Positions 7,178 through 61,531 of a stretch of DNA of 64,000 bases are shown here, piece by piece. The translations under genes were made by a program, and so were the position numbers. The notes under the pieces were generated by a model. The model saw only the letters and a program-made list of their open reading frames with translations. It had not been told where the DNA came from and searched no databases. Each line of letters opens with the position of its first letter. The stretch's first letter is position 1. Origin of the DNA: Candidatus Heimdallarchaeota archaeon (GTDB lineage Archaea; Asgardarchaeota; Heimdallarchaeia; JABLTI01). The stretch spans positions 116,949-180,948 of the forward strand of contig JABCTZ010000017.1 of NCBI GenBank assembly GCA_018238155.1, written 5' to 3'.

Positions 7178-8083
7178 GTGGTGACAATATTTTTGCCAGC
7201 AAATACTCGCGATTCACTTTCCAAAGCTAAGCCTCTCAAAGACAGGAGCGAAGAAGCAAAGATTGCTATAAAAATAGCTGCTGATTTAACTGATCCACCC
7301 GAAATTGTCCGAGAAGATTTACTAAAAACACATGTATTGAAGATGGAGTCAGTTGAGCTTTCACACTGGTATGGCGATAACAGAGTTCTTTCTGGTATTT
7401 CTATGCCTATTTTCAACAACAGAGTTACAGCTATCATTGGTCCTTCCGGTTGTGGGAAATCGACTTTCCTTCGGGATTTAAACAGGATGAATGATTTAGT
7501 TAAGATTGCACGAATTGCTGGCAAAATTTTGCTTGATGGACAAGATATCTATGCAGAACATATTGATGTTGTTCAACTGAGAAAACGAATTGGTATGGTC
7601 TTTCAGAAACCAAATCCTTTTCCTATGTCAATAGAAAACAATATTGCATACGGTCCATATGTTCATGGAGTGAAGCATGAGGGTTTAGATGAAATTGTTG
7701 AAAGTAGCTTGAAAAAAGCTGCCTTATGGGAGGAGGTCAATCAACGACTAAAAGATTCTGCATTATCATTATCAGGAGGACAACAACAGCGGTTGTGTAT
7801 TGCTCGAGCCTTATCTGTTCAACCTGAGGTTCTCTTAATGGATGAACCGTGTAGCTCTCTTGACCCTCATGCTACCGCTAAGATTGAGGATTTAATTACA
7901 AAATTAAAGCAAGATTATACTGTAGTGATCGTTACCCATAATATGCAGCAAGCTGCTCGAGTGTCTGATTACACTGCATTTTTCAATATAGGGGAGTTAA
8001 TTGAATTTGATAGAACAAAGAAAATCTTTGCTAATCCTGAGAGGAAAATGACTGAAGAATATATTTCCGGGCGATTTGGATAG
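7178..8083 (+). CDS. pstB: Phosphate ABC transporter ATP-binding protein, copy 2
   Basis: Same PstB motifs; tandem paralog. Confidence 0.95.
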
Positions 8084-8131
8084 ATAGTTAGGATACTAAT
8101 TAATTAACGAATATGAATATTAAGTAGAAAG

Positions 8132-8818
8132 GTGAAGAAATTGAGTAAATTCAGGTCGAAATTTGGTGGTACAATACGTTTCAAGGAAATTATGAAAGAA
8201 TTGAATCAACATCTAGTTGTCTTGTCCAATCTTGTGATTAAAATGATTAAAGATGGAAATACTGCCTTAGCTAATGATGATGAATCTATCTTCAAAAGAC
8301 TTGAAGAAGAACTTAAGGAAGTTCATGAACATTGTAATTCTATTGATGAAACTGTTATGGATACTATTGCTTTGCATCAACCATTTGCAAAGGATTTACG
8401 ATTTATACTTTCCACGCTCAAAGTTTCAAATGAAATTCACCGTTCAGCTCATGATGCAGTACACATTGCTAATAGTTCAGCTTTTATCAACCTGAAAAAA
8501 TATACTGAGATTATTCAAAGAATTGGTGATTTGGCTACAAAAGCTTCTTCCATGTTCAAGAAAAGCATAGAAGCATTTTGCAATCAGAAGGAGCTCAATG
8601 TGCAAAAATGGACAAAAAAGGATGATGAAGTTGATAGATTACATTCGGAAATCATTCAAGATGTCACTAAAATCGTTGAAACCGATCCAACATGGTCAAG
8701 AGCAGGTGTTAGTCTTATTCTGACAACAAGGTATATTGAACGAATTGCTGATCATGCATGCAATATTGTTGAAGAGAGCAATTATGTTGTTACAGGTAAA
8801 AAAGCCAAAATTGAGTAA
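8132..8818 (+). CDS. phoU: Phosphate signalling protein PhoU
   Basis: QPFAKDLR, DDEVD, ERIADHACNI; pst context. Confidence 0.9.
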   Translation: MKKLSKFRSKFGGTIRFKEIMKELNQHLVVLSNLVIKMIKDGNTALANDDESIFKRLEEELKEVHEHCNSIDETVMDTIALHQPFAKDLRFILSTLKVSNEIHRSAHDAVHIANSSAFINLKKYTEIIQRIGDLATKASSMFKKSIEAFCNQKELNVQKWTKKDDEVDRLHSEIIQDVTKIVETDPTWSRAGVSLILTTRYIERIADHACNIVEESNYVVTGKKAKIE

Positions 8819-8964
8819 TGTCTTTTCTATCGAGTATTATCTTCATAGATTTTGATTCTTTTTCTTTCAGAGAAGACTTTGTATTGTTCGTTATTTTTTT
8901 TTATTTTGAAGAATTGAATACTATTCACGAGTATAAATTTGATATTTGGAATTACATTTGCCTA

Positions 8965-9045
8965 ATTCTCTCTATATAGATATAATTGAGATATATTCAG
9001 CTATTGTTCTGAAAATAAACTATACAGAGAAGGATTATCTTAATG
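8965..9045 (+). promoter_or_regulatory. Conserved CTATA-rich upstream element of pstS copy 1 (candidate PHO-box-like operator)
   Basis: CTATATAGAT...TATATTCA.CTATTGTT...ACTATACA.AGAA is repeated upstream of pstS copy 2 (~11200-11270). Confidence 0.55.
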
Positions 9046-9098
9046 TCTCTCCTAAGATGTGCACACAAGAAAATAAAACTAAATGGAGAAAAAATAAA

Positions 9099-10031
9099 AT
9101 GTCATTCGGTAAAAATACTAGCAAACTAACATACCTCCTTATTACATTAATTTTTGTTGGAACAGGTTTTGGTGTCTTTATTGGTTGGATTGCTTTTAAT
9201 GATGGAAACGGTGGAGATACATATATCTTAAATGTTCAAGGCTCCACCACAGTAGAAAAAATATGTACCTTGTCTGCAGTTCCTTTTATGGAAGCTCATC
9301 CTAGTGTTCAAGTAACGATTTCAGGTACAGGCTCGGGAACAGGAATTGGTACACTTATCAATAGTCAATGTGACATTGCAATGGCTTCCAGAACAGTAAA
9401 ATCAACTGAAAATGATACCGCACATACAAGTACAGGTGTTTGGTTGAGACAATTTACAATTGCAAAAGATGGATTGGCGATAATTATTAATGACGACGTT
9501 ACTAGCATTTTAGATCTCAGTGAAGATACAATCAAGGCAATTTTTAACGGCACAATTTCTAATTGGAGTGATACAGCTTTACCAGATGTAGGTTTATCCA
9601 GTGAAATTCAAGTAGTGGTTAGAGAAGAAGGATCTGGTACAAGAGATACCTTCAATGAATTAATAATGGGTGATGCAGATCAAGAATTCGCAGACAGTCA
9701 ATATGTTGGCGATGCTTTGCCTATGACTAGTAATCAGATGATTTTCGATGAAGTAAATACTAACCCCCAAGCAATCGGTTATGTTGGACTTGGGTATCTT
9801 GGTGACGGCGTTGAATCAGTACATGTAGATGGCGTTGAACCAACTTTTGAAACAGTAGTAGATGCAACATATTCTATTCAAAGAGAACTTTACCTAGTAA
9901 CTTTAGGTGACCCTGAAGTTGGGTCATTAATATGTGAATATGTGAATTGGCATTTCAGCCCAGACGGACAATATTTTGTCTTTGATTCTGGGTTCATAAA
10001 TATCTTACCTAGACGAGACAATCTAATATAG
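9099..10031 (+). CDS. pstS: Phosphate-binding protein PstS, copy 1 (N-terminal TM anchor)
   Basis: GSTTV, GSGTGI, DIAMASR, REEGSGTR; start moved to 9099 (MSFGK) to match the 310-aa paralog. Confidence 0.92.
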   Translation: MSFGKNTSKLTYLLITLIFVGTGFGVFIGWIAFNDGNGGDTYILNVQGSTTVEKICTLSAVPFMEAHPSVQVTISGTGSGTGIGTLINSQCDIAMASRTVKSTENDTAHTSTGVWLRQFTIAKDGLAIIINDDVTSILDLSEDTIKAIFNGTISNWSDTALPDVGLSSEIQVVVREEGSGTRDTFNELIMGDADQEFADSQYVGDALPMTSNQMIFDEVNTNPQAIGYVGLGYLGDGVESVHVDGVEPTFETVVDATYSIQRELYLVTLGDPEVGSLICEYVNWHFSPDGQYFVFDSGFINILPRRDNLI

Positions 10032-47945: not shown

Positions 47946-48054
47946 GGACGAGTGGTCTAGCCTGGCATGACGCTTCCTTGACGACGATAAAAAATTGCGA
48001 TTTTTGTCGGCTGAATGGAGGCTATCGAGAGTTCGAATCTCTTCTCGTCCACCA
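47946..48054 (+). tRNA. tRNA-Val(GAC) with anticodon-loop intron (~47984-48015), encoded CCA
   Basis: Acceptor GGACGAG/CTCGTCC, Val-type D arm GTGGTCTAG..ATGAC, stem CTTCC/GGAGG, T-loop TTCGAAT, intron hairpin CGATAAAAA/TTTTTGTCG. Confidence 0.9.
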
Positions 48055-48055
48055 A

Positions 48056-48634
48056 TTATTTTCTTCTTTCTTGTTTTCTATATCCTATTATTCCGAGAAT
48101 ATTTTTCTCTATGAATTCTTTTGTATCGACCCCTTCCATCAATCTCTCTTTTATTTCTTCTCTTATTTTTTCTTCCCCCTCTTCTCCTATTTCTCTATAT
48201 TTTCTTGTTCTCTCTTTTTCTTCTCTCTCTAGTTCTTCTTCTACTCTTCTCTTTCTCTGCGTTAGTTCTCTTATCTCTTCTCTTTTTTCTTTTTCTTGAT
48301 ATGCAGGCTCATTGTAATAATTCCACATTCTCTTCACTATTTCATTCTCTTTGTTTAGTGAGTATTTCCTTTTCTCATGTTTTAGTATCCCTTCTTTTGT
48401 TCCTTTTTGCAATTTCTTTATGAGCGTGCTTTTTTCCCAAGGCATTTTTTCTAGTAGTTCTGCTAGCGAGTATTTTTTCGAGTGTCCTCTCGTTATTTTT
48501 TCTTTTACGAATTCATTTGCTATTTGATATAGTATTTCTCCTTCTTTTTTCCTTATTTTTTTTATTTGCTCCACTACCTCCTTTCTTTCTTCTGTTTTTT
48601 TCGTCAATATTTCTAGTTCCTCTGTTATTGTCAC
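48056..48634 (-). CDS. Coiled-coil/wHTH protein (terminal gene of the Cas1-like operon)
   Basis: YSLAELLEKMPWEKSTLIKKLQKGTKEGIL..EKRKYSL wHTH pattern; stop codon 1 nt after the tRNA CCA; two decayed copies downstream. Confidence 0.75.
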   Translation of the reverse strand: MTITEELEILTKKTEERKEVVEQIKKIRKKEGEILYQIANEFVKEKITRGHSKKYSLAELLEKMPWEKSTLIKKLQKGTKEGILKHEKRKYSLNKENEIVKRMWNYYNEPAYQEKEKREEIRELTQRKRRVEEELEREEKERTRKYREIGEEGEEKIREEIKERLMEGVDTKEFIEKNILGIIGYRKQERRK

Positions 48635-48651: not shown

Positions 48652-50535
48652 TTAGTTTATCCCCCGAATTGTCAGTGGTCTGAATCCTGTTGTTCTATGT
48701 TCTCTTCTCAAATTTCTTACCAATCGTTCTTGTTCTTCTCTTCCCATTACTTCCCATACTTTCTCTTTCATCACTGCCCACGGCAAGTATTCTTCTCCAT
48801 GGTGTTCTATTTCATAGTAATTACTTCTCCTGTAGAAGTTGTTTACCCATTGTTTTCCCTGCAAGTAGTACTCTCTTATTCCATTTTTCGTTTTTCTTCC
48901 ATTTATTTTCCCTCTTTTCATCTCTTCAATTATTTCTCTTATCTGCTCTTCTAGTTCTGTTCCATGTTTTACATAGAATATTTTCTGTCTGTTTCTCCCT
49001 CTGTAATGTTGTATCTTATCTACTTCTATCATCTCGTTTTGTAGTGTTTCTAGTAGATATGGTAAGGTTAGTATTTTTTCTTGTTCTCTCATATCCAGAT
49101 GGAATCCAAACACTCCTCCTCGCGTTTTTCCATGGCATATACCTGGTAGTCCATCCCAACAGAATTCTATGTCCATGAGGTATTCCTTCACAAATTCTCC
49201 TGCAATTCCGAATTCTCCATTTATCAGTGTATCAATTGCTGAGTAAGCGAAAAATCTCTTATATGGTATTGACATATCCGTTACTAATCTGCTATCTACT
49301 CTTCCCGGAAAGTCTATTCCCAATTTCTTTAGATAGATTCTTACTATTCCCCACATTTCTTTTCCTGCTCTCATCTCATAGAGATTCCATTCTTTCGCTG
49401 TTATCCATCTTTTATTATTCACTTCTAAGATTAATTCTTCTATTTTCTTTCTTGCCCTTTTCACTTCAATTTCATTTGCTTTTTTGAATTGTTCATTTAT
49501 TTTCTCTATCACTGTTATTCTGCTTAGGAGCATTGCTATACAGAATTCTTTGTTAACGATCTTTATTTCCCGTAATAATCTCAGTAATCCTATATGTTGT
49601 TTCACTGGCGGTGGACTTACTAATTTCTCTACTCCCAGTATAACATCTATCTCTCTGTATCCTTTCTCATTTAGGAGTTCGACTATTGTTTCATAATCCT
49701 CTTTTCTTTTAGCAACTACATATTTAATATCATTTAATTTTCCTATCCAATTATTGACAGCCATTGTTTTTGTTCTAAAATTAAAACTGGCATCTCTCAG
49801 ATCATGGATAACTATCCCGAATTTATCACTCGAGTAAAGTACTCCCGGTTCCCCTCCTCCTGTTGCTTTTGTGAAATTCTCTTTATACTCTACTCCATTT
49901 TCTATGTTGTAATGAACTCTGAATTCTTCTTTTTTCTTATCGAATAGTGTCTTGTAATATGTATCACAATTTTCGCATCTTAGTACTGAGCTTCCCAGCT
50001 TCGTGATGTAGTTATTTCCTAGAGTCGTTAATTCTGCTTGGCATTTCTCGTTTGCACAATGATAGCTTATCCTAAACCCGTTTTCCGTTTCTGTTATTCT
50101 TCTGTTTTCGTCTAGGAAAACTTCTAGTTTTCTGCTATATAGCTGATTTTCTACTTCGATGAAATCATCACAAGCTACTGTATTTTTCGTTAATTTTGCT
50201 TTTACTCTATCTGCCCTGATTATTATTCCTCTTTCTGCTAGTTCATCATGGTAGGTGCATCTTCTATTTTTACTTTTATTTTTACATTCGGAACATTTCC
50301 TTCCGAGATATTTTGGCCACTGCGCATTCGTTGTTTTATAATACGTAACTCCTCCCTTCGGTCTAGCTACTCTTTTTCCCTCAATTAACCCCTTTTTTTC
50401 TAATATCTTAACATGTTTATGCACTACTCCATTTGATCGATCAAGCTCTTCAACTAACTCTGAAATTGTTACAGGATATTTTTCCGGTTTTTTTCTTATT
50501 ATCCTGAGTATTTCACTTTGAATATCTGTTGCCAT
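48652..50535 (-). CDS. Divergent Cas1-family (Cas1-solo/casposase-like) protein with N-terminal wHTH and two Cys clusters
   Basis: aa~235-570 follow Cas1 motif order: LNDIKYVV..ELLNEKG; YE387MRAGKEMW (EGxAAxxYW); DFPGR; AYSAIDTLINGEFG (AxDPxNAxLNYGY); PGICH468; FHLD481MRE484QEK (LxLDLMEEFR). Confidence 0.75.
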   Translation of the reverse strand: MATDIQSEILRIIRKKPEKYPVTISELVEELDRSNGVVHKHVKILEKKGLIEGKRVARPKGGVTYYKTTNAQWPKYLGRKCSECKNKSKNRRCTYHDELAERGIIIRADRVKAKLTKNTVACDDFIEVENQLYSRKLEVFLDENRRITETENGFRISYHCANEKCQAELTTLGNNYITKLGSSVLRCENCDTYYKTLFDKKKEEFRVHYNIENGVEYKENFTKATGGGEPGVLYSSDKFGIVIHDLRDASFNFRTKTMAVNNWIGKLNDIKYVVAKRKEDYETIVELLNEKGYREIDVILGVEKLVSPPPVKQHIGLLRLLREIKIVNKEFCIAMLLSRITVIEKINEQFKKANEIEVKRARKKIEELILEVNNKRWITAKEWNLYEMRAGKEMWGIVRIYLKKLGIDFPGRVDSRLVTDMSIPYKRFFAYSAIDTLINGEFGIAGEFVKEYLMDIEFCWDGLPGICHGKTRGGVFGFHLDMREQEKILTLPYLLETLQNEMIEVDKIQHYRGRNRQKIFYVKHGTELEEQIREIIEEMKRGKINGRKTKNGIREYYLQGKQWVNNFYRRSNYYEIEHHGEEYLPWAVMKEKVWEVMGREEQERLVRNLRREHRTTGFRPLTIRGIN

Positions 50536-50594: not shown

Positions 50595-51206
50595 TCACTC
50601 ATTTGTTTCTGACCAAAACCTGTTATACGTTTCTTCTCTTCCTATTCCTTCATCATAATTTGCATATACTCCTATTCGAAAATTCTGCAATGCTTCCTCA
50701 ACAATTTCCTCTGTTGAGCTATTGCTATTTTCATAAGTCGTTTTTGAGAAATTCTCTACTAATTCAACAATATCTCCCTCAGTTATTTTCTGTAGGATAG
50801 TATCAATTTCTTTGTCTTGTTCCTGATAGTTATTATTGAATTCCTTAGTTAGAACGATTTCTTTCTCAATTCTCCCTATTTCTTTAAGGAGATCTGTTTT
50901 CAATTCTTGTTCTGATTCTGCATAGCAAAAACATGGATCGATAAATGCCATTCTAGAATATAGTTCATTATTTGTTAGCGTGTGTTTTATCCACAGTTTA
51001 TTTTCCTTCTTCTTTGTTATCATTTTCTCTTTTTCTATCAAAGAATCTATTGCTACTGCAACTGACTTTTCGTGTCGATTAATCTCACAAGCAAGCCCTT
51101 TTCGACCTCTAACATACCATTCCCCTTCACCCTTTATTTCTCTCAGAACAAAGAACCAAATAATTTCTACTTCCACTTTATTCAAACGTTCAAAATTATC
51201 AATCAA
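50595..51206 (-). CDS. Putative wHTH DNA-binding protein
   Basis: GRKGLACEINRHEKSVAVAIDSLIEKEKMITKK HTH-wing pattern; first gene of the Cas1-like operon. Confidence 0.6.
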   Translation of the reverse strand: MIDNFERLNKVEVEIIWFFVLREIKGEGEWYVRGRKGLACEINRHEKSVAVAIDSLIEKEKMITKKKENKLWIKHTLTNNELYSRMAFIDPCFCYAESEQELKTDLLKEIGRIEKEIVLTKEFNNNYQEQDKEIDTILQKITEGDIVELVENFSKTTYENSNSSTEEIVEEALQNFRIGVYANYDEGIGREETYNRFWSETNE

Positions 51207-51284: not shown

Positions 51285-52064
51285 TTGTTCTTTAAAAGGA
51301 TAATTTTCCAGTGTTTATTGAGAAAATTGCTTGAGAACGATTTCATCCTTAGTAAAACTGGTTTTATTGCCTACTTAGAATGTCCATTCCAGTTCTATCT
51401 ACAGAAGGAACTACAACATCACAAAGGATCAGGTGGAAACATTGATCACTCTGGATATGAATCCTTTTTACAGAGAGGTCTGGAAAAACACAAATGGTTG
51501 GAATGTTTCTATCAAGAGTATGGAACAAAAATAAGGAATGATGTTTATCCTAGATTAGACCAATCGGATGAAGATGCTTTTTGGAAACAACAATTCATAG
51601 ATTTTGAAATTAAACGATATGTCTCAGAGCCTAAATTTTGGGAACCTGTAGCAGTGGAGTATTATTTGAACGATGGAGTTTTTTGTGGGAAAATTGATCG
51701 AATTGATAGAATAAGTGATTTAGGTCATTGCCGTATAGTAGAATATAAATCGTCTCCGAAAGAATTCGATAAAGAAGAATTACTTTTCTATGCAGTTCTT
51801 TTAGCAAGTCAGTTACCTACTTTGGATTTACCAGATATTACTAAAGTGACTGAGTTAGGCATGTATTATTATTCATCTTCAGAATATTTTTCAACATTAA
51901 TTACAATGGACAATATTGTTACTTTTAGAGAGTATCTTGAAGAAATACTCCTGGAAATAGTAAATCCACAATCAATCAAAAAGAAAAAAAGATGTGATTT
52001 TGCTGTTACTACTTGTCTTTTTAGGCATATTTGCCAAAGAATTAACATTAAAAACAGAAAATAA
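51285..52064 (+). CDS. Cas4/AddB-like PD-(D/E)XK nuclease with four-Cys cluster
   Basis: LSKT....YLECP.QFY, G...H, AVE, GKIDRID, IVEYKS, LLFYA, C-terminal C......C.....C. Confidence 0.85.
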   Translation: MFFKRIIFQCLLRKLLENDFILSKTGFIAYLECPFQFYLQKELQHHKGSGGNIDHSGYESFLQRGLEKHKWLECFYQEYGTKIRNDVYPRLDQSDEDAFWKQQFIDFEIKRYVSEPKFWEPVAVEYYLNDGVFCGKIDRIDRISDLGHCRIVEYKSSPKEFDKEELLFYAVLLASQLPTLDLPDITKVTELGMYYYSSSEYFSTLITMDNIVTFREYLEEILLEIVNPQSIKKKKRCDFAVTTCLFRHICQRINIKNRK

Positions 52065-52200
52065 TTGGACTTTCGAAAATATAGGTTCTTTATCCTTGGA
52101 AAAATTTCGGACTTTCTAATTTTATACCTTTTTTTTGATGGAAAAAAATCGGACTTTCGAAGTTCTTGCAGACCAAAGGATATTTTTTCGGACTTTCGAA
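52056..52200 (+). repeat. Four phased direct repeats, core (TC)GGACTTTC(G)AA
   Basis: Cores start at 52067, 52109, 52151, 52190 (spacing 42/42/39 bp). Confidence 0.85.
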
Positions 52201-52511: not shown

Positions 52512-54161
52512 TTACAAAAATATCTCATCTCGCCATTGTTTCTTGTATCGATAAAATTCCTTTACCGTAAGTGTAGGAAAATCGATTGAATAATTATAAA
52601 ACGTTTCAAGAAAGTGAAGGAGAAGTCTACAATTAATACGGGAATTTATTAATTTAAGGCTAAAAATTTCTTCTAAAATAACGGCTACCTCGTCACTAAT
52701 TTCACTTACTAAAACATAATTTATCTTGGGTTTAAGTAGGGGTAGTATAATTTCTAATTCAGTACTTGGTTTTAATGGAAGTGTTATTGGGCTTGAATTA
52801 ACAACTTGATATGTAATATTACTTTTATTCTGTTCTAATATTTCGTAGAGAGTTCTAGTATGAGGTTGATTATTCAATATCTCTTTCAGCATTGAATATG
52901 GTAAACCTCTCTTATTCTTCTCCATATTAGAATAACTGCCTTGTGCAATTTTAAATTGATCATCCATAACAACATAAGTTCTTCTAGCACGGTATTCTTT
53001 AAGGAAATTACCTAAACCAAAAATAAAGAGAGAGTCAAATAAATCAAAATTGTAATAACCATCTTTTGTTAGAACATCTTTTTTCAAACCTTGAAATACA
53101 ACATATTTTTTATTATGTAGAAGATAATCCAATAAATCATTGCTTTTTTTAGGGTTTAAAGAACCGATTAATTCGACATAACGAAGTTTATCTCGAGCTA
53201 ATAAATAGATCATAACTGATCCGTTGGAGTTTTGTGGAACTTTTACTTCAAAACTATTCAAGTTTAGAAACTGCTTAAAATCAAGAAGATATCGTTCACT
53301 CGCGCTAGTAAATGAGATTCGATTCTTGAATGATCCATCAGCATCCATTGCACCACGCCAGTAGATATTCCGGAAAGGTCTTCCAAGTTGTTTGAATAGA
53401 AGTGGTTCTCGGAGTGAAGCATACTTTGCTCCTTCGATAGTGTGGTCGGTTAAAAAATTAATAATTCGAACTACCATAGCAGAACGTAACTCAATATTCC
53501 AAGCATTTCCTGTAAGAAACATCTCTCCAGGGTCATTGAAATTCTGTTCATAAAGTTTTGAGAGTAACAGCAAGAATTCTTTGGTTTCATCAGTTACCCG
53601 GAAATTATGCCTGTGTAAATGCCCGTCCCCATTTGCTACACCGCAAAGATACACAATAGCATTAGTTAATTTCGTTGGAATCGAGTATTTCTTTCCTCGA
53701 GCACTTTCAAAGTATAATTCCTCAATTTTTGGGTTAGTTAAGGGAAGATCAAGGATAGCACAAGCACAACGATACAACGGATAGGGCATTGCTCCCCGTT
53801 TGAGATACGTTTCAAATCTTCTCTTCCACTCCATGATACCTGAATTAATGGATCTGTAAAAGTAATCTCGAGTGAATTCAGCGATAAGCAAAATCCTTTT
53901 TTTAATTAGTGTTTTTTCCTCATCTGTGAGAACGAGGAAAGGAAATCTCGAGAGTATCCTGTCATTATCTTTTTCCTTTACAAAATCGATTTTTCTAACC
54001 AAAATTGGAAAAAGATGTAAGGTGTAATTGGTAGTATCAAAAAAAGAATTTATTCTTTGTATTCCAGCTGTAAGTAGCTTGTTTGCAGTTACCCATTTAT
54101 TCATTGGAGTGGGTTTCGCATCAAGTAACAAAGGATCATTTTGCCAAGTAAGAGGAGCCAA
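52512..54161 (-). CDS. Free-standing double-motif LAGLIDADG endonuclease-like protein with possible HTH
   Basis: YLCGVANGDGHL and YWRGAMDADGSF; later IAQGSYSNMEKNKRGLP XRE-like helix; no intein termini. Confidence 0.75.
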   Translation of the reverse strand: MAPLTWQNDPLLLDAKPTPMNKWVTANKLLTAGIQRINSFFDTTNYTLHLFPILVRKIDFVKEKDNDRILSRFPFLVLTDEEKTLIKKRILLIAEFTRDYFYRSINSGIMEWKRRFETYLKRGAMPYPLYRCACAILDLPLTNPKIEELYFESARGKKYSIPTKLTNAIVYLCGVANGDGHLHRHNFRVTDETKEFLLLLSKLYEQNFNDPGEMFLTGNAWNIELRSAMVVRIINFLTDHTIEGAKYASLREPLLFKQLGRPFRNIYWRGAMDADGSFKNRISFTSASERYLLDFKQFLNLNSFEVKVPQNSNGSVMIYLLARDKLRYVELIGSLNPKKSNDLLDYLLHNKKYVVFQGLKKDVLTKDGYYNFDLFDSLFIFGLGNFLKEYRARRTYVVMDDQFKIAQGSYSNMEKNKRGLPYSMLKEILNNQPHTRTLYEILEQNKSNITYQVVNSSPITLPLKPSTELEIILPLLKPKINYVLVSEISDEVAVILEEIFSLKLINSRINCRLLLHFLETFYNYSIDFPTLTVKEFYRYKKQWRDEIFL

Positions 54162-54221: not shown

Positions 54222-54923
54222 CTAAAGTGACACTTTCTCATTAGCTTTTTCAATTAGCCAATTCATGTCAAGAATTTCTAAAGAATCAATGGCAAAGATT
54301 TCAATACCAGCTTCCCAAAGAATAAGCCCAATTCCTTGAGCTGCAAAACCTAGTTTACCTGTGATGTTTACTTTTAATTTTTGAGTGATTGTATCATAAT
54401 AATTCTCTAAATAAAAATCACGCAGAAATCGCATTTCAATAGATGAAGATGAATTATTCCTTAGATAAAGAGCTCCTGCGAGTATGACTTGATCTGTGTC
54501 TTCTGCATTGATTGTTAGATCAGTAAAAATCTGTTGTGTTAGGTTGGCAATGTCTACAGAATGCTTTGCTAATACCCAATACACTCGGGCACGAACACTA
54601 GGGGATATATCAATGATTAATGGAGAAATATATTGTACACTTTCTTTCTGTTGAAATGATTCAAGATAGAGTACGGATTTTTCTCGTAGAAAGCTTTCAT
54701 GATGTGATAGGAGCTTTTGTGAAATAGAAATTTTTACCTCTTCAGATACCTTCTTCTTTGCTATGAGAAAGTCTAACAAGGTGTTAAGTTGGGGTGCTGT
54801 TAGAGAACTCAAAGTATTCTCATATAACTCCTCAAATTCTTCTAAATTATCTTCTACTAGGAGAATTTGTTTAAAGATTATTTCCGGAATTGTTTCTTGA
54901 AGTTTTTTCTGAAGAAAGGTCAT
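54222..54923 (-). CDS. HEAT-repeat-like helical protein
   Basis: SFLREKSVLYL and SPSVRARVYWVLAK HEAT-like units. Confidence 0.55.
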   Translation of the reverse strand: MTFLQKKLQETIPEIIFKQILLVEDNLEEFEELYENTLSSLTAPQLNTLLDFLIAKKKVSEEVKISISQKLLSHHESFLREKSVLYLESFQQKESVQYISPLIIDISPSVRARVYWVLAKHSVDIANLTQQIFTDLTINAEDTDQVILAGALYLRNNSSSSIEMRFLRDFYLENYYDTITQKLKVNITGKLGFAAQGIGLILWEAGIEIFAIDSLEILDMNWLIEKANEKVSL

Positions 54924-54933
54924 AATATCACAT

Positions 54934-57036
54934 TTATTTAGTAATTTCTAAAGCGAATGTTTCTGTGCGGTAATCATGAAACATTGAGTCTATATTTGGA
55001 AGAAAATCATCCTTCACTTTGATGTAAAGTTGACTTTTATTACAATTAATAGTTTTTTGATGTAAATTTATTTCTCCAATAGCAAACCTGATTTTTGAGT
55101 AGAGATTTGGTTCATACTGAAATTCTCCTCTATCCTTACAGCTTATTGCTTGCATCTCTCCATTTTTAAAGATAAGGTGATCCACCTCAAAATGCTTGCC
55201 ATAAAAGGAAAAGAGAACGTTTGAAACAACTTGAAAATCCATTCTTTCAAGCAATTCTCTGGTGTGTTTCTCGTATTCTGTACCGGATTCAGTTTTGAAT
55301 CTTTTAAACTTTATAATATTGCATAATGGGGGTAAATTATTCGAAATAATTTCCCACTGTTCTAGTAAAATTTGATATTCTCTTCGGTTGTAAAACATTT
55401 TGCTTCTAGCTTTGAGAATATGATAATTTCCATTCTTTGCTAAAGTAGAATGAAGTGTCTGCAAGATTTCTTCTACATTATCAATTGGTTGAAATACACT
55501 GAACTTCTTTTGTAGTCTCATATCAAAATCTGCACTATTATTTAATCGATCCGAGATTACCTTGTAAAGTAGAGAGTAATCAGTTTTAGTTGTGTTCATA
55601 AGAAAACAATATTGCTCAATAAGTTGTTTAGCTTTTGCAGGTTTAGTATGTGTTTGCCGTAATACTTTGAATGCTTCTTGTTCTAAATCTTTTTTTGTAG
55701 TTAGTTTATGTGTAACTGGATGAATGAGTTGATTCATTCTTTTATTGTCTTTTAATAATGTTAAGAACTCATTAATACGCTCTAAAAATAGCGTTGGTTT
55801 TTTAACAAGTGCATTCACCTCATCCCTTCCAATAAGAATGATCTTTTTTGCTAAACCATAAAGTTTAGTTATATTCTTACCAAATTCTGTAGTAGTTACC
55901 TCAAAATTAAGAAAAACTATTGAGCAAATATTGCTCTTTTTTATTTCGTCTTGTAAATAGAGTAACTCGCCTAATATTTCAGTAAGCGGCTCATTATTTT
56001 TTTCTGCTGTTTTAATCTCGATTAAACCTATTAATTCATTCCAAATAAGCAATCCATCAAGACGTTTAGTAATTTGGGGACGATTCGAAGTTGTAATTTT
56101 AGTTTCCGAGAATAACTTGCTGTTTTCCTCTGTAAAAACACTTTTTAAAATCGTCCAAACATTCGACTCAAAGTCCTTATCAACATGTCGAGATTTATCT
56201 GTCCAAGCAGTTGTTAATTGTTGTATATTATATCCTGCTTGTCTTAGCTCCTTGGTTAGTGTTAGATCTTGTTTTGCATGTTTTGATAGTTCAAATATTG
56301 GGTGAGTGAATATTATTTTTATTTTCTTTCTGGGACCGTAATATGGAATAGTTATTTTATTTACAAGTTGTTTCTTTTTCTTTCTTTGTGAAAACTTTAG
56401 AATCGTTTTTGATCCATCGTCAATAGTTCCAACGACATAGTTATTTTTTAATGTCCACCAGTCTTTAATATATCTGCCAAGCTCTTGTGATAACTCAATA
56501 TCTCCAGATTCTCCTAGAGAACAATAACATTCAATTTGTAGTTGCTTTGTGTTTGTTTGGTAGATATCAAATGAATTTCCTCTTCTTTTACTTCCTAAAA
56601 GCCTTAGTGTTTTTTTCTCTTCTTTGATGTTGTTATATTCAAGTAGTTCTCTGTTTTTGAAAAACAACCCTGTTGGTTTTAATCCATTAATGATACAGGT
56701 GATTTTAGAATCTCTATATTGAGAGGTTATCTTATTCATCTCATTCATGTTTGATAATACTAAGAACCATCCGTTAGTTTTATTTTCAAGAGAGGCTATT
56801 TGGTTGATTATTATCTCTTTATTTCGATTGTCCTCATTCACAATAATGATCATTCTTATTGTATTTTTGTCTTCTTTACTTGATCTTACTATATCCATCC
56901 AATTCAGAATTCTTACAGGAATATGTATACTTGACAGAGTTAGTTTTCTATTGATTATGATTGTTCCATCTGTAAAAATCTCGAATGTTGTTCCTCTCCC
57001 AGGTTTTCCAGCTTTGTAGAGTAATTTTCTTATCAA
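54934..57036 (-). CDS. Large protein with two putative PD-(D/E)XK nuclease domains
   Basis: DFE...RLDGLL...IEIKT and EYE...FEVDHLI...ISCKD (Mrr/NERD-like). Confidence 0.65.
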   Translation of the reverse strand: MIRKLLYKAGKPGRGTTFEIFTDGTIIINRKLTLSSIHIPVRILNWMDIVRSSKEDKNTIRMIIIVNEDNRNKEIIINQIASLENKTNGWFLVLSNMNEMNKITSQYRDSKITCIINGLKPTGLFFKNRELLEYNNIKEEKKTLRLLGSKRRGNSFDIYQTNTKQLQIECYCSLGESGDIELSQELGRYIKDWWTLKNNYVVGTIDDGSKTILKFSQRKKKKQLVNKITIPYYGPRKKIKIIFTHPIFELSKHAKQDLTLTKELRQAGYNIQQLTTAWTDKSRHVDKDFESNVWTILKSVFTEENSKLFSETKITTSNRPQITKRLDGLLIWNELIGLIEIKTAEKNNEPLTEILGELLYLQDEIKKSNICSIVFLNFEVTTTEFGKNITKLYGLAKKIILIGRDEVNALVKKPTLFLERINEFLTLLKDNKRMNQLIHPVTHKLTTKKDLEQEAFKVLRQTHTKPAKAKQLIEQYCFLMNTTKTDYSLLYKVISDRLNNSADFDMRLQKKFSVFQPIDNVEEILQTLHSTLAKNGNYHILKARSKMFYNRREYQILLEQWEIISNNLPPLCNIIKFKRFKTESGTEYEKHTRELLERMDFQVVSNVLFSFYGKHFEVDHLIFKNGEMQAISCKDRGEFQYEPNLYSKIRFAIGEINLHQKTINCNKSQLYIKVKDDFLPNIDSMFHDYRTETFALEITK

Positions 57037-57418: not shown

Positions 57419-58528
57419 TTATTTTCTTTTCTTGCGTTCAGCAACTTCTTTTATTCCCGCAAGTAACGGAGCTTTAATCTCCTCTTCTTTGTTTTCTTCT
57501 ACTTCCTCCTCTTCTTTTCTTTGTGGTAAATCAATTGTTTCTTCATCAGCTATTCCATAATTGGTTAAGAAAAACTCTGTCGTTTCGCATGGAAGAAATG
57601 AACAACTATCTACTTTCATTCGTCGAGAATTATCCCTTAATTTCCTCAAGAACAAACGCATATCCGAAGCATGCTCTATAGCTTCTCCACCTGCAGGTTT
57701 AATTGGAGAATATTTGTGATTAAATCCATGATTAGCAATAACATGATTTGTGAAGATAATAGCACAATTAAACCCAAGAGCTAAACGCTTAAGAAACGCT
57801 AACAAACTTTGCAAATGCTTTTGCATGATGATGGTTTCATTTATTGTTATGTATCTGCTTTCAAAAGGGGTCATCAATGAATCAATGATTACCAATCGGG
57901 TATCAAATGCTTGCACGTATCCTGGCAGTCGATCTATTGCTTGTTGGAAGTTCCTCATTTGTTCTGCTTGTACTATGAATAAGTTGCTTAGTAATTTCTC
58001 TTCTGCTATTTCGAAACGCTTTCCTATCCGTAAATAGTGTTCACAATGAAAGAAACTGTTTGTTGTAATATAGATAACTGGACTATCCAATCCACCTTTT
58101 TCTACCGGCATTTGTGCAGTCACCGCTGCTGTCATACAAGTTTGCGTTTTTCCTGAGCGATACTCTCCAACGATTTCCGTTAGCATTCCTGTTCTAAAAC
58201 CCCCTTCAAGCAAGGTATCAATCTCTTTTGAACCACTAGTAAAACTTTTCTGGGATTGGAGCTGATTCTCCCAATATTCTTCTACGTTCTGAAATAATTT
58301 TCCCCGAAACATATCTTGAGAAGCTCGACAAAGAGCTTGAGCAGTTCTCTCACTTATATTTGGTATTTTGCAATAATCAGTTTCAGTTAATACTGTCAGT
58401 GCTCGTGCATCATAGATGCCAAAATCTTTGAGTGCTTTAATAGAAATTTTCGGAATTCCATATTTTAATCTATTTTTCTCAATAAAATCTGCTATATCAT
58501 ATCTCACATTAATTGGCATTTTCTTCAT
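57419..58528 (-). CDS. RadA/Rad51 paralog, probably degenerate
   Basis: HhH N-domain, GEYRSGKT, LVIIDS, GG....H....RL.LRK; catalytic YIDTE replaced by YITTN. Confidence 0.85.
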   Translation of the reverse strand: MKKMPINVRYDIADFIEKNRLKYGIPKISIKALKDFGIYDARALTVLTETDYCKIPNISERTAQALCRASQDMFRGKLFQNVEEYWENQLQSQKSFTSGSKEIDTLLEGGFRTGMLTEIVGEYRSGKTQTCMTAAVTAQMPVEKGGLDSPVIYITTNSFFHCEHYLRIGKRFEIAEEKLLSNLFIVQAEQMRNFQQAIDRLPGYVQAFDTRLVIIDSLMTPFESRYITINETIIMQKHLQSLLAFLKRLALGFNCAIIFTNHVIANHGFNHKYSPIKPAGGEAIEHASDMRLFLRKLRDNSRRMKVDSCSFLPCETTEFFLTNYGIADEETIDLPQRKEEEEVEENKEEEIKAPLLAGIKEVAERKKRK

Positions 58529-58575: not shown

Positions 58576-58610
58576 GGTAGTTCACGGTTCAAATCCGGGA
58601 TCGCCCACCA
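58576..58610 (+). repeat. tRNA 3'-fragment repeat R1
   Basis: GGTAGTTCACGGTTCAAATCCGGGATCGCCCACCA (3 mismatches to R2). Confidence 0.92.
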
Positions 58611-59146: not shown

Positions 59147-59181
59147 GGAAGTCCCCGGTTCAAATCCGGGATCGCCCACCA
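59147..59181 (+). repeat. tRNA 3'-fragment repeat R2 (best-preserved copy)
   Basis: GGAAGTCCCCGGTTCAAATCCGGGATCGCCCACCA: variable loop, perfect T-arm, 3' acceptor strand, ACCA. Confidence 0.95.
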
Positions 59182-59623
59182 ATTATTTTCTTCTTTCTTG
59201 TTCTCTATACCCTATTATTCCGAGAATATTTTTCTCTATGAATTCTTTTGTTTCTATCCCTTCCATCAATCTCTCTCTTATTTCTTCTCTTATTTTTTCT
59301 TCTTCCTTTTCTCCTATTTCTTTATATTTTTTCGTTATCTTCTTTTTCTAGTTCTTGTTCCAATCTTCTCTTTCTCTGCGTTAGTTCTCTTATCTCTTCT
59401 CTTTTTTCTTTTTCTTGATATGCAAGTTCATTGTAATAATTCCACATTCTCTTTACTATTTCATTCTCTTTGTTTAGTAAGTATTTCCTTTTCTCATGTT
59501 TTAGTATCCCTTCTTTTGTTCCTTTTTGCAGTTTCTTTATGAGCGTGCTTTTTTCCCAAGGCATTTTTTCTAGTAGTTCTGCTAGCGAGTATTTTTTCGA
59601 GTGTCCTCTCGTTATTTTTTCTT
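59182..59623 (-). pseudogene. Truncated, frameshifted copy of the 192-aa wHTH gene (duplicate of 48055-48504)
   Basis: Near-identical DNA beginning exactly after CCA (ATTATTTTCTTCTTTCTTG); small deletion, 5' part missing. Confidence 0.88.
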
Positions 59624-59720
59624 GTAAAACACTATTCTTTTTGATATTGTGCAATATTGTTATAAACACAAATAATTAATAGTATATTCCTCACATTTTT
59701 TAAATACTCTAATGTGAGAT

Positions 59721-60740
59721 TTGAGTAAAATTGAGAGTGTAAGAATGTCACTAACTGAGAACTCTAATTTTCCTAATTTTTCTTATTCAGATGCAATGTT
59801 GTTTTCTGTTCCCAAAGGTGATCTTTATCCGATTGGTTTGTTAACTGATAAAAAACAATCTGGAAAAAGAAATGATTTAGATATTAAGATAAAGATTCTC
59901 TCCGAGCTTAGAAATAGTTTAGATGAAACTGGAAATAATATAATAACCGAAATGCCTCTTCCTGAAAGATTTTCTAAAGCTAACGTTCTTGAAAAGTGGT
60001 TATTAAACACAAATCAATATTTCAATAAGGTTGAGGATGAAATATCCGCTGAAAAAGATTCCTCTTTTAGTTTACTCATTGAAACTCTTGAGCTTAAAGA
60101 AAAAATTGAATATAAAGTTCAAACTAATAATTATCAAAATATTGATCGCTTAATTAAACTCTATGATCGGAAATTAATTGATGCGTTTAAACTTATTTAC
60201 AAATTAATGCTATCAATCCGAACTAATTTGAGTATAATGTTTCTTGATTCAGAACTTCCCCCCGAATTTATTTCCACTATAAGTAATACAATGAACTCCT
60301 CATTAACTTTTATTGAATTTCTTCAATCTGAACAAGATTCAATTTTTGTTGATTTAAATAAATATAAATCCGGACGAACAACTGTAAAAAGAACTAAACC
60401 AATTTTAGCTAGAATTGATGCATTAGATGAAGATCATAATAAATTGCTGCTAAATTTCCAAAGATTGCTTTTCTTCATAGAAATTTGGAATTCCCCAACC
60501 TTGGAAGTATTATTCACTGATCAAGACATCCATTATGATATTAAGAATTTTGAATCCCATCAAGGATTTTTCATTAATTCATTAAATAAATTGAACCAGT
60601 TTGCAAAAGATTTTCATCACAAGGTAATAAATGCTGCTATGGAACGCAAACAATCCATCCCATTTTCACTAAAGGAAAAGGATTCAAGGAAAGACGATGA
60701 TGCTATCTCTTTATTTGCAAAAATAATTCACTCCTATTAA
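59721..60740 (+). CDS. Helical protein of unknown function upstream of a PIN gene
   Basis: 339-aa ORF, 19 nt before the PIN gene; no motif recognised. Confidence 0.65.
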   Translation: MSKIESVRMSLTENSNFPNFSYSDAMLFSVPKGDLYPIGLLTDKKQSGKRNDLDIKIKILSELRNSLDETGNNIITEMPLPERFSKANVLEKWLLNTNQYFNKVEDEISAEKDSSFSLLIETLELKEKIEYKVQTNNYQNIDRLIKLYDRKLIDAFKLIYKLMLSIRTNLSIMFLDSELPPEFISTISNTMNSSLTFIEFLQSEQDSIFVDLNKYKSGRTTVKRTKPILARIDALDEDHNKLLLNFQRLLFFIEIWNSPTLEVLFTDQDIHYDIKNFESHQGFFINSLNKLNQFAKDFHHKVINAAMERKQSIPFSLKEKDSRKDDDAISLFAKIIHSY

Positions 60741-60759
60741 GATATGAGAGGTATGGGAA

Positions 60760-61491
60760 ATGAAGTATGTTTGTTTTGACACAAACTATCTCTTGGCTGT
60801 TTTAATACCACTAGATAATTGGAAATCTGTAATTAAGATGTGTGAAGCTGAAATTGCCGAACTTGTTAATAGAAAGAAAATTAAAGTTTTTATTACTGAT
60901 AAAGTTGAATCCGAAGCTAACAATAGGATAATGGATATTTCCAAGAATGCTTCCCAACATTTTAGAAAATTATTTCATAAATTGAAGTCTACTGATTTAA
61001 AGAAGCCTTTTAATAAATCAAGCATTTTGAGTTTACGAAAAGAATTACAATTAATCTTAAGAGACGAAAATGACAAAGTGATTAGAAATCAACTATACTT
61101 CTATGAAGATTATCTTTTAAAAAATATAAATGATTTTCCTAAAAAACCCAAGAAGATTCTAATTGCTGAGTGTTTGAGTGAAATAAATGAAATTTCATTG
61201 AGATTTGATACTGAGTTGCAGGTTTACAATATAATGATTATTCAAAAACCAACTATTCAAAATGAACTTGATAAACTCAATGCAATAGAAAACAGAATAA
61301 AAGTTATGGTTCATAATTATAGTGATAGCGAGATTTTAGCCACATTTATTTATTTTATAAATGAAGAAAATGTTGAAGGGATATTCGTTACTCATGATTT
61401 TGTTGATTTATTATTAAACAGTTTATATCTTGAAGAAGAATTTAAAGAAGTTCATATAGTTAGACCACAATATGTAAAATTCCTTGTTTAG
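60760..61491 (+). CDS. PIN-domain ribonuclease with large helical insertion
   Basis: VCFDTNYLL, ITDKVESE, DSEIL, FVTHD. Confidence 0.78.
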   Translation: MKYVCFDTNYLLAVLIPLDNWKSVIKMCEAEIAELVNRKKIKVFITDKVESEANNRIMDISKNASQHFRKLFHKLKSTDLKKPFNKSSILSLRKELQLILRDENDKVIRNQLYFYEDYLLKNINDFPKKPKKILIAECLSEINEISLRFDTELQVYNIMIIQKPTIQNELDKLNAIENRIKVMVHNYSDSEILATFIYFINEENVEGIFVTHDFVDLLLNSLYLEEEFKEVHIVRPQYVKFLV

Positions 61492-61507
61492 TTTTTTCAA
61501 TTATTTA

Positions 61508-61531
61508 GTACTAAATCTGAATCGTTCAACA
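61508..61531 (+). repeat. Degenerate tRNA 3'-fragment repeat R2b
   Basis: AAATCT-GAATCGTTCAACA vs AAATCCGGGATCGCCCACCA (14/20, mostly transitions), 3 nt before the stop of the third wHTH-gene copy. Confidence 0.6.

Follow-up and report, generated by a model that had tools for sequence, protein, structure and literature searches.

To our knowledge, the only biochemical roles of Cas1 are integrations of DNA, namely the insertion of spacers into CRISPR arrays and the transposition of casposons. Casposons are defined by Cas1 together with a family B DNA polymerase (PolB), terminal inverted repeats (TIRs) and target-site duplications; those of family 2 abut the 3' ends of tRNA genes and have flanking duplications of 14–15 bp. 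The target-site preference of casposons has been described (PMC5137440), and family-2 casposases carry a C-terminal helix-turn-helix (HTH) domain (PMC9755687). Among Asgard archaea, diverged Cas1 homologues were reported earlier from computational work (Makarova et al., 2020, CRISPR J 3:156, as cited in PMC8730458), and an Asgard 'aCas1', linked to TnpB, has been named and suggested to act as the transposase of elements flanked by repeats (Altae-Tran et al., 2023, PMC10691335). Here, we describe P0001, a Cas1-like protein of 627 residues encoded in a stretch of 64,000 nucleotides (the window) of contig JABCTZ010000017.1 from the 4.1 Mb genome of Candidatus Heimdallarchaeota archaeon. P0001 is a genuine, extremely diverged member of the Cas1 superfamily with conserved catalytic residues; its gene lies outside any CRISPR adaptation module, in one of several gene islands that together look like a candidate kind of mobile element.

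A first-pass annotation of the window had proposed a highly divergent Cas1 at positions 48652–50535 without naming a strand; this interval is a single open reading frame (ORF) on the minus strand. An AlphaFold model based on the alignment of the family has a predicted local distance difference test (pLDDT) score of 84 and a predicted template-modelling (pTM) score of 0.82. All significant matches in a Foldseek search of the PDB were Cas1 proteins or the casposase of M. mazei (best E value 8e-8), as were the top 30 or so matches from Foldseek and VIA, so that the anticipated Cas1 fold is borne out. VIA aligned residues 238–625 of the model with Archaeoglobus fulgidus Cas1 (PDB code 4n06_B; Z score 18.8) and residues 271–627 with the casposase (PDB code 6opm_A; Z score 18.1, root-mean-square deviation 3.7 Å over 255 residues), and gave Z scores of 16–18 for more than 14 further PDB entries of Cas1 or casposases, with deviations of about 3 Å over 220–255 residues for many Cas1 proteins aligned to residues 304–625. 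The two-domain architecture of Cas1, an N-terminal β domain followed by a C-terminal α-helical domain, is thus matched structurally.

The active site is also conserved. H468, D481 and E484 are invariant among 23 close homologues, in which position 387 is either Glu or Asp, and the set E/D387, H468, D481 and E/D484 is retained in members of the superfamily that are only 22–28% identical. When the family was compared with 21 canonical Asgard Cas1 sequences using hhalign, residues 324–509 were placed on Cas1 positions 95–258 with an E value of 0.001 and a probability of only 22%; the three columns that are invariant in Cas1 are occupied by E387, H468 and D481, and the glutamate that comes next is matched by E484. 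According to this alignment, the four residues would be equivalent to E141, H208, D218 and D221 of Escherichia coli Cas1, the positions to which they had been assigned in the first-pass annotation. The Pfam family PF01867 (Cas_Cas1) matches three of the 23 homologues (best E value 9e-8) and the distant relative P0046 (34.7 bits against a cut-off of 22.3). P0001 itself gave no PF01867 match above the curated cut-off and Cas1 was also undetected by NCBIfam and PADLOC; searches of Pfam, NCBIfam, PADLOC, PHROGs and the PDB (phmmer and profile) returned matches of the winged helix-turn-helix (wHTH) type only, as did a viral structure library. That the wHTH is the only part recognized by family libraries might suggest that P0001 is mainly a DNA-binding regulator with wHTH and zinc modules in which the Cas1 domain has become an inactive scaffold, and group-1 Cas1-solo proteins have indeed been reported without full catalytic sets (PMC9939771). 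However, an inactive scaffold would not be expected to conserve its catalytic residues at such low sequence identity, and we regard this reading as highly improbable. We conclude with high confidence, from the sequences and the model, that P0001 has the appearance of a catalytically competent stand-alone Cas1 with new N-terminal DNA-binding modules.

Both of these modules had been described in the first-pass annotation. The wHTH matches the Pfam families HTH_24, MarR_2, HTH_11 and HTH_5 (E values of 1e-6 to 4e-4), of which HTH_24, MarR_2 and HTH_5 match at residues 3–56, and residues 1–70 superpose on the winged helices of ArsR, MarR and Z-alpha with Z scores of about 11 (VIA). A Cys module of 166 residues (71–236) lies between the wHTH and the Cas1 fold. 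Its eight cysteines, C81, C84, C93, C122, C160, C165, C187 and C190, are invariant in an alignment of the 23 full-length homologues (33–67% identity), which makes two zinc sites likely. Both clusters are retained in the superfamily members at 22–28% identity, some of which are fused into proteins of 830–1215 residues, and the combination of N-terminal wHTH and Cys module is kept throughout the superfamily. When folded alone, the Cys module yielded no convincing fold relative (best PDB match with a VIA Z score of 3.3, Foldseek E value of 0.09 and ESM Atlas TM score below 0.4), which does not prove that the fold is new. A separate ORF of 174 residues at C11:84901–85338 (L012/L020) consists of the Cys module alone and is 32% identical to residues 61–198; the module to which it belongs contains NERD, 233-residue and LAGLIDADG genes and no recognizable Cas1 domain. 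(Labels beginning with C denote contigs of the same genome and those beginning with L denote loci of the gene module described below, of which L001–L005 lie on contigs from related Heimdall metagenome-assembled genomes.)

A small family of 29 proteins (19 representatives) emerged from homologue searches of about 5.8 billion and 1.8 billion proteins. The named homologues are proteins from Heimdall-group metagenome-assembled genomes and are annotated as 'hypothetical' or 'wHTH domain-containing', in line with the expectation that automatic annotation would overlook the Cas1 domain. When 301 Asgard genomes were searched, nine of the ten genomes of this genus yielded members of the family, and 290 other Asgard genomes gave only two weak matches. 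Canonical Cas1 (PF01867) was found in just three of 11 genomes of the genus, and the family also occurs in genomes in which it was not found; these frequencies support the independence of the family from canonical Cas1. The genome studied here has one canonical Cas1, located beside a CRISPR array on C15; arrays are present on C12, C15 and C27.

The casposases of family-2 casposons (Methanosarcina mazei, PDB code 6OPM, and Aciduliprofundum boonei) share with P0001 the Cas1 fold, the same catalytic residues, an additional HTH domain and a stand-alone context without Cas2 or an array. In P0001, however, the HTH is N-terminal rather than C-terminal and is followed by the two-cluster Cys module. 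Several of the islands abut a tRNA 3' end in the manner of family-2 casposons, but they lack PolB and TIRs, and the element is therefore not a casposon; their repeats of 24–42 nt also differ from the 14–15 bp of casposons and are unlike fresh target duplications. With the Cas4–Cas1–Cas2 adaptation complexes of types I-C and I-G (PDB codes 8D3L and 7MI4) P0001 shares its fold (Z scores of 17–18) and the proximity of a gene for a Cas4-like iron–sulfur PD-(D/E)XK nuclease, whereas the module has no Cas2, array or effectors and the canonical Cas1 of the genome is elsewhere. The claim of a stand-alone enzyme holds accordingly: no CRISPR array was found in the window, no Cas2 or CRISPR effector gene among the module proteins and no PolB among the island ORFs of at least 100 residues, all of which were scanned for PolB and for recombinases.

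Like aCas1, the family is an extremely diverged, Asgard-restricted group of Cas1 proteins outside CRISPR loci, with flanking repeats at about half of the module copies. TnpB accompanies the module in only some copies: a tnpB gene (OrfB_IS605 with a Cas12f1-like TNB domain) lies directly beside the LAGLIDADG end in L003/L004 (3976–5834), L005 (803–2014) and C6 (38344–39705), an arrangement reminiscent of the link between aCas1 and TnpB in the literature. The copy in the window differs in having no TnpB, and the motif GTTCACTCA, which has been described downstream of tnpB genes associated with aCas1, was not found consistently. The present family is probably among the 'unprecedented diversity' of Asgard Cas1 homologues of 2020.

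The features of the Cas1-like gene and of the island in which it lies are listed in Table 1.

Table 1. Positions in the window of the Cas1-like gene, its domains and the accompanying features of the island.
Feature	Position	Strand	Basis
Cas1-like gene (protein P0001), 627 aa	48652..50535	-	Single ORF and translation; 29 full-length homologues; Cas1 fold
Winged helix-turn-helix, aa 1–70	50326..50535	-	Pfam HTH_24, MarR_2, HTH_5; VIA Z about 11
Two four-Cys clusters (C81/C84/C93/C122; C160/C165/C187/C190), aa 71–236	49828..50325	-	Invariant Cys; domain model pLDDT 85
Cas1 N-terminal β domain, aa 238–300	49636..49824	-	4n06_B and 4xtk_D alignments start at 238–240; strands 240–300
Cas1 α-helical catalytic domain, aa 304–627, with E387, H468, D481, E484	48655..49626	-	VIA Z 17–18, hhalign, conservation
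192-aa HTH protein, last gene of operon	48056..48634	-	Beside Cas1-like gene in all close copies; weak HTH_71 and CARF-wHTH matches
203-aa wHTH/coiled-coil protein, upstream of Cas1-like gene	50595..51206	-	Conserved position; weak wHTH matches in homologues
Cas4-like PD-(D/E)XK nuclease, divergent from operon	51285..52064	+	Pfam PDDEXK_1 E 6e-16; PADLOC Cas4 E 4.5e-5
Four copies of an iteron (core CGGACTTTCGAA; spacing 42/42/39 bp) following Cas4-like gene	52057..52200	.	Core at same place in C43, L001, L002, L005
549-aa double-LAGLIDADG nuclease-like protein	52512..54161	-	Motifs NGDGH and DADGS invariant; PDB I-Tsp061I-type E 0.006
233-aa protein, weak HEAT-like signal, optional module gene	54222..54923	-	
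700-aa protein, weak NERD nuclease domain, optional module gene	54934..57036	-	
RadA/Rad51 paralogue, 369 aa, variable cargo at far island end	57419..58528	-	Pfam Rad51 E 2e-51
Intact intron-containing tRNA-Val(GAC) abutting island	47946..48054	+	Rfam tRNA; ARAGORN
First tRNA-Val 3'-end fragment repeat, probable distal island boundary	58576..58610	+	Matches L002 tRNA-Val allele, not resident tRNA
Second tRNA-Val fragment, then copy of first ~450 nt of island, 88–92% identical	59147..59623	+	Remnant of older tandem element

The Cas1-like gene is the middle member of a three-gene operon, between the genes for the 203-residue wHTH/coiled-coil protein and the 192-residue HTH protein. In the Cas4-like protein, D138, D141 and E153-x-K155 are invariant, as are one N-terminal cysteine and two C-terminal ones; a third C-terminal cysteine (C250) is retained in five of six sequences. 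The lead to LAGLIDADG_3 for the 549-residue protein came from the ESM Atlas. The order [NERD, 233]/LAGLIDADG/Cas4-like (opposite strand)/wHTH/Cas1-like/HTH recurs on other Heimdall contigs, and the module is present at least seven times in the genome studied here, with identities of 20–66%; at least three of these copies are close, among them those on C43 (Cas1-like protein 66% identical) and C6 (58%), and more distant versions are found on C42, C17 (two), C11 and C19. The distal cargo varies by island and comprises RadA, Orc1/Cdc6 with a 180-residue protein, or a TPR protein. The tail of the island RadA paralogue is acidic or lysine-rich, and C21 carries a copy with which this paralogue shares 56% identity.

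Three or four iterons with the core TTCGAAAGTCCGA, 39–42 bp apart, are found in L015 (about 9047–9222), L001 (about 8287–8454), L002 (8441–8492) and L005 (4003–4064). They sit in a long spacer of roughly 450 nt between the convergent Cas4-like and LAGLIDADG genes and are conserved across islands whose proteins share just 45–66% identity; they could form a binding array for a wHTH protein or a replication origin.

The copies do not always behave as a single unit. In L060 (G004:C364) and L061 (G005:C48), which belong to two genomes of the genus, the Cas4/wHTH/Cas1/HTH block is 96% identical at the nucleotide level, whereas the LAGLIDADG gene is just 74% identical; the module therefore recombines, with a breakpoint inside it. 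The flanks of these two loci on the LAGLIDADG side are unrelated. Such modular exchange between copies, the several nucleases of the module and the toxin–antitoxin cassettes adjacent to it would be compatible with an array-less, nuclease-rich defence or DNA-surveillance module composed of the Cas1-like, Cas4-like, LAGLIDADG and NERD proteins, carried as island cargo and mobilized through homologous recombination or a trans-acting recombinase. Some of the Cas1-containing systems of Asgard archaea have been predicted to serve in non-programmable defence (Makarova et al., 2020, as cited in PMC8730458). However, PADLOC detected no defence system in the module, only weak Cas4 and wHTH matches, and neither an array nor, apart from the short iterons, any other locus that could plausibly store a memory was found. 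It is more typical of selfish elements to occur in seven or more diverged copies per genome and to be confined to one genus, and a defence role is not what the known integration chemistry of Cas1 would suggest. We therefore consider a defence function doubtful.

The boundaries of the islands point instead to mobility. The island in the window starts 1 nt past the CCA of tRNA-Val(GAC), and the stop codon of the 192-residue gene is likewise 1 nt from this CCA end. Islands also abut tRNA-Val(GAC) in L001 and L002, tRNA-Ala(GGC) in C43 and tRNA-Leu(TAG) in C6. A copy of 24–42 nt of the 3' end of the islands' own tRNA is found 8–11 kb away in C43, C6 and L001, and the repeats give island sizes of about 10.2 kb (C43), 8.0 kb (C6), 11.2 kb (L001) and about 10.5 kb (window, where the repeat belongs to a different tRNA-Val allele); no distal repeat of this kind was found within the L002 locus. 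Past the distal repeat, further repeats separate toxin–antitoxin cassettes or island remnants. Empty sites can also be recognized: in four sister genomes, an intact tRNA-Leu precedes the same ABC-transporter gene by about 92 nt, at exactly the position where the genome studied here holds only a 42-nt fragment. Between genomes, the island genes are 43–64% identical, compared with 69–86% for four of six flanking host genes (the others being HisF at 53% and GNAT at 32%).

The 35-nt repeats beyond the island in the window (58576–58610, 59147–59181 and more to the contig end) are the 3' end of the intact tRNA-Val(GAC) allele of L002. An older tandem island remnant occupies positions 59182–61531; it begins with a truncated version of the 192-residue gene, which shares about 90% identity with the live copy, and continues with genes for proteins of 339 and 243 residues that are 81–84% identical to genes within the L001 island (remnant stretch 59721–61491). 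L001 carries fragments of two different tRNA-Val alleles, and the tRNA at the tRNA-Val site seems to have been replaced repeatedly.

This arrangement resembles that of the archaeal elements of the SSV and pNOB8 type, which integrate at tRNA genes with tyrosine integrases, in having an intact tRNA on one side and a 24–42-nt 3' fragment on the other, in the tandem accretion of elements and remnants and in the displaced fragment keeping the host allele. It differs from them in that no tyrosine recombinase is encoded by the islands and the terminal island ORF is not split by the att site. No tyrosine, serine or DDE recombinase was found in the islands using Pfam, PHROGs and PADLOC, and the genome has two matches in all to the tyrosine recombinase family PF00589, both on other contigs (C8 and C19). 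The tyrosine-integrase explanation was set aside because no such gene is present in or near the islands, although a trans-acting enzyme may move them.

We propose that P0001 is the integrase of an integrative island of 8–11 kb that lacks PolB and TIRs and whose core also includes the LAGLIDADG protein, the Cas4-like protein and the two small HTH proteins; we put the probability of this reading at about one half. It is suggested by the Cas1-like protein being the sole recombinase-type enzyme in the islands, by the position of its gene one gene from the junction in most tRNA-linked copies, by the restriction of every known Cas1 activity to DNA integration and by the earlier proposal of Asgard aCas1 as the transposase of repeat-flanked elements (PMC10691335; PMC8730458). 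In such a mechanism, the wHTH and zinc modules, possibly with the two HTH partners, would recognize the island ends, the target (often a tRNA 3' end) or both, the Cas4-like nuclease would trim the DNA ends, and the active site formed by E387, H468, D481 and E484 would join the island 3' ends to the target by metal-dependent transesterification.

A number of observations weigh against P0001 being the integrase. We know of no biochemical activity for any member of the family, and H468 lies in a loop of the model (residues 462–479) that has low confidence, with a pLDDT of about 40. No tRNA gene or tRNA 3' end was found near eight further copies of the module, and about half of the close copies (L059, L060, L061 and L005) have neither nearby. 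At the ends of the four bounded islands, TIRs did not rise above shuffled controls. The C6 module has an inverted orientation with respect to its tRNA, upstream of which there are also 5.7 kb of extra DNA with a TnpB gene. The islands and related loci are not targeted by any of the 50 CRISPR spacers of the genome. (One of the 50, from the C12 array at 7829–8977, matches C24:36311–36351 perfectly over 41 of 41 nt, which represents a self-target or an integrated element.)

A further difficulty for the integrase reading lies in the alleles of the repeats. Direct repeats of 24–42 nt of the tRNA 3' ends do exist in the flanks, but the two copies are different alleles and are therefore unlike a recent target-site duplication. 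In the window, the distal fragments match the tRNA-Val allele of a related genome and share only about 60% identity with the resident tRNA-Val. The last 24 nt of the C6 fragment are identical to the allele of the sister genomes, whereas the intact tRNA-Leu next to the island has a different sequence in which the stems show compensatory changes. A staggered cut of the Cas1 type followed by fill-in would give identical copies, of which the non-functional one would decay; the opposite is seen. No 5' halves of displaced tRNAs were found at the island borders. Judged from these sequences, target-site duplication accounts for the repeats less well than does homing or an attP × attB exchange. The pattern of alleles would fit an exchange with a tRNA-like site carried by the island, homing accompanied by co-conversion, or later replacement of the tRNA along with a new island.

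Homing would cast the LAGLIDADG protein as a nuclease that cuts unoccupied alleles of tRNA genes or other sites, after which repair would copy in both the island and a tRNA allele that resists cleavage. The Cas1-like and Cas4-like proteins would then have another task on the island, such as end processing or ectopic DNA capture. The intact tRNA beside the island being the divergent allele and the displaced fragment the native one is what co-conversion would give. Both catalytic Asp motifs of the double-LAGLIDADG gene are invariant, and this gene is the best conserved of the module (64–68%, against 47–56% for the Cas1-like gene) and the one with the most genomic copies, so that it could be the true engine of mobility. 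An element with a homing endonuclease at an rRNA/tRNA site has also been proposed in Heimdallarchaeum (PMC8813620). Homing alone, however, explains neither the occurrence of islands at three different tRNA genes as well as at sites without a tRNA nor the superfamily-wide conservation of the Cas1 catalytic residues and of the N-terminal DNA-binding modules, and the contrast between the two parts of the module in L060 and L061 indicates that they can uncouple. We consider homing an unlikely explanation of the islands as a whole.

A more specific version of Cas1-driven insertion takes the tandem repeats at face value: the Cas1-like enzyme would insert cassettes or islands at the tRNA 3' end, each time duplicating or displacing a tRNA-end repeat of roughly 30–40 nt. 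We think this quite improbable. If true, the array of toxin–antitoxin and remnant cassettes punctuated by tRNA-end repeats would correspond, at the level of gene cassettes, to a CRISPR array or to a Cas1-run integron, and would be a living intermediate that links the transposition of casposons to the acquisition of spacers.

The Cas1-like family represents a third, deeply diverged branch of Cas1 besides those of CRISPR systems and casposons, with its own DNA-recognition modules, a fixed partnership with homing-type and Cas4-like nucleases, no polymerase and no array. With several copies of defined extent and at least one site that is empty in sister genomes (that of tRNA-Leu), the integration chemistry and the choice of target are amenable to testing. 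A sequence-specific Cas1 that inserts roughly 10 kb of DNA at defined sites could, if true, also be of practical interest. Should P0001 be an integrase, the range of DNA mobilized by Cas1 enzymes would widen, with a bearing on the origin of adaptation modules from mobile elements.

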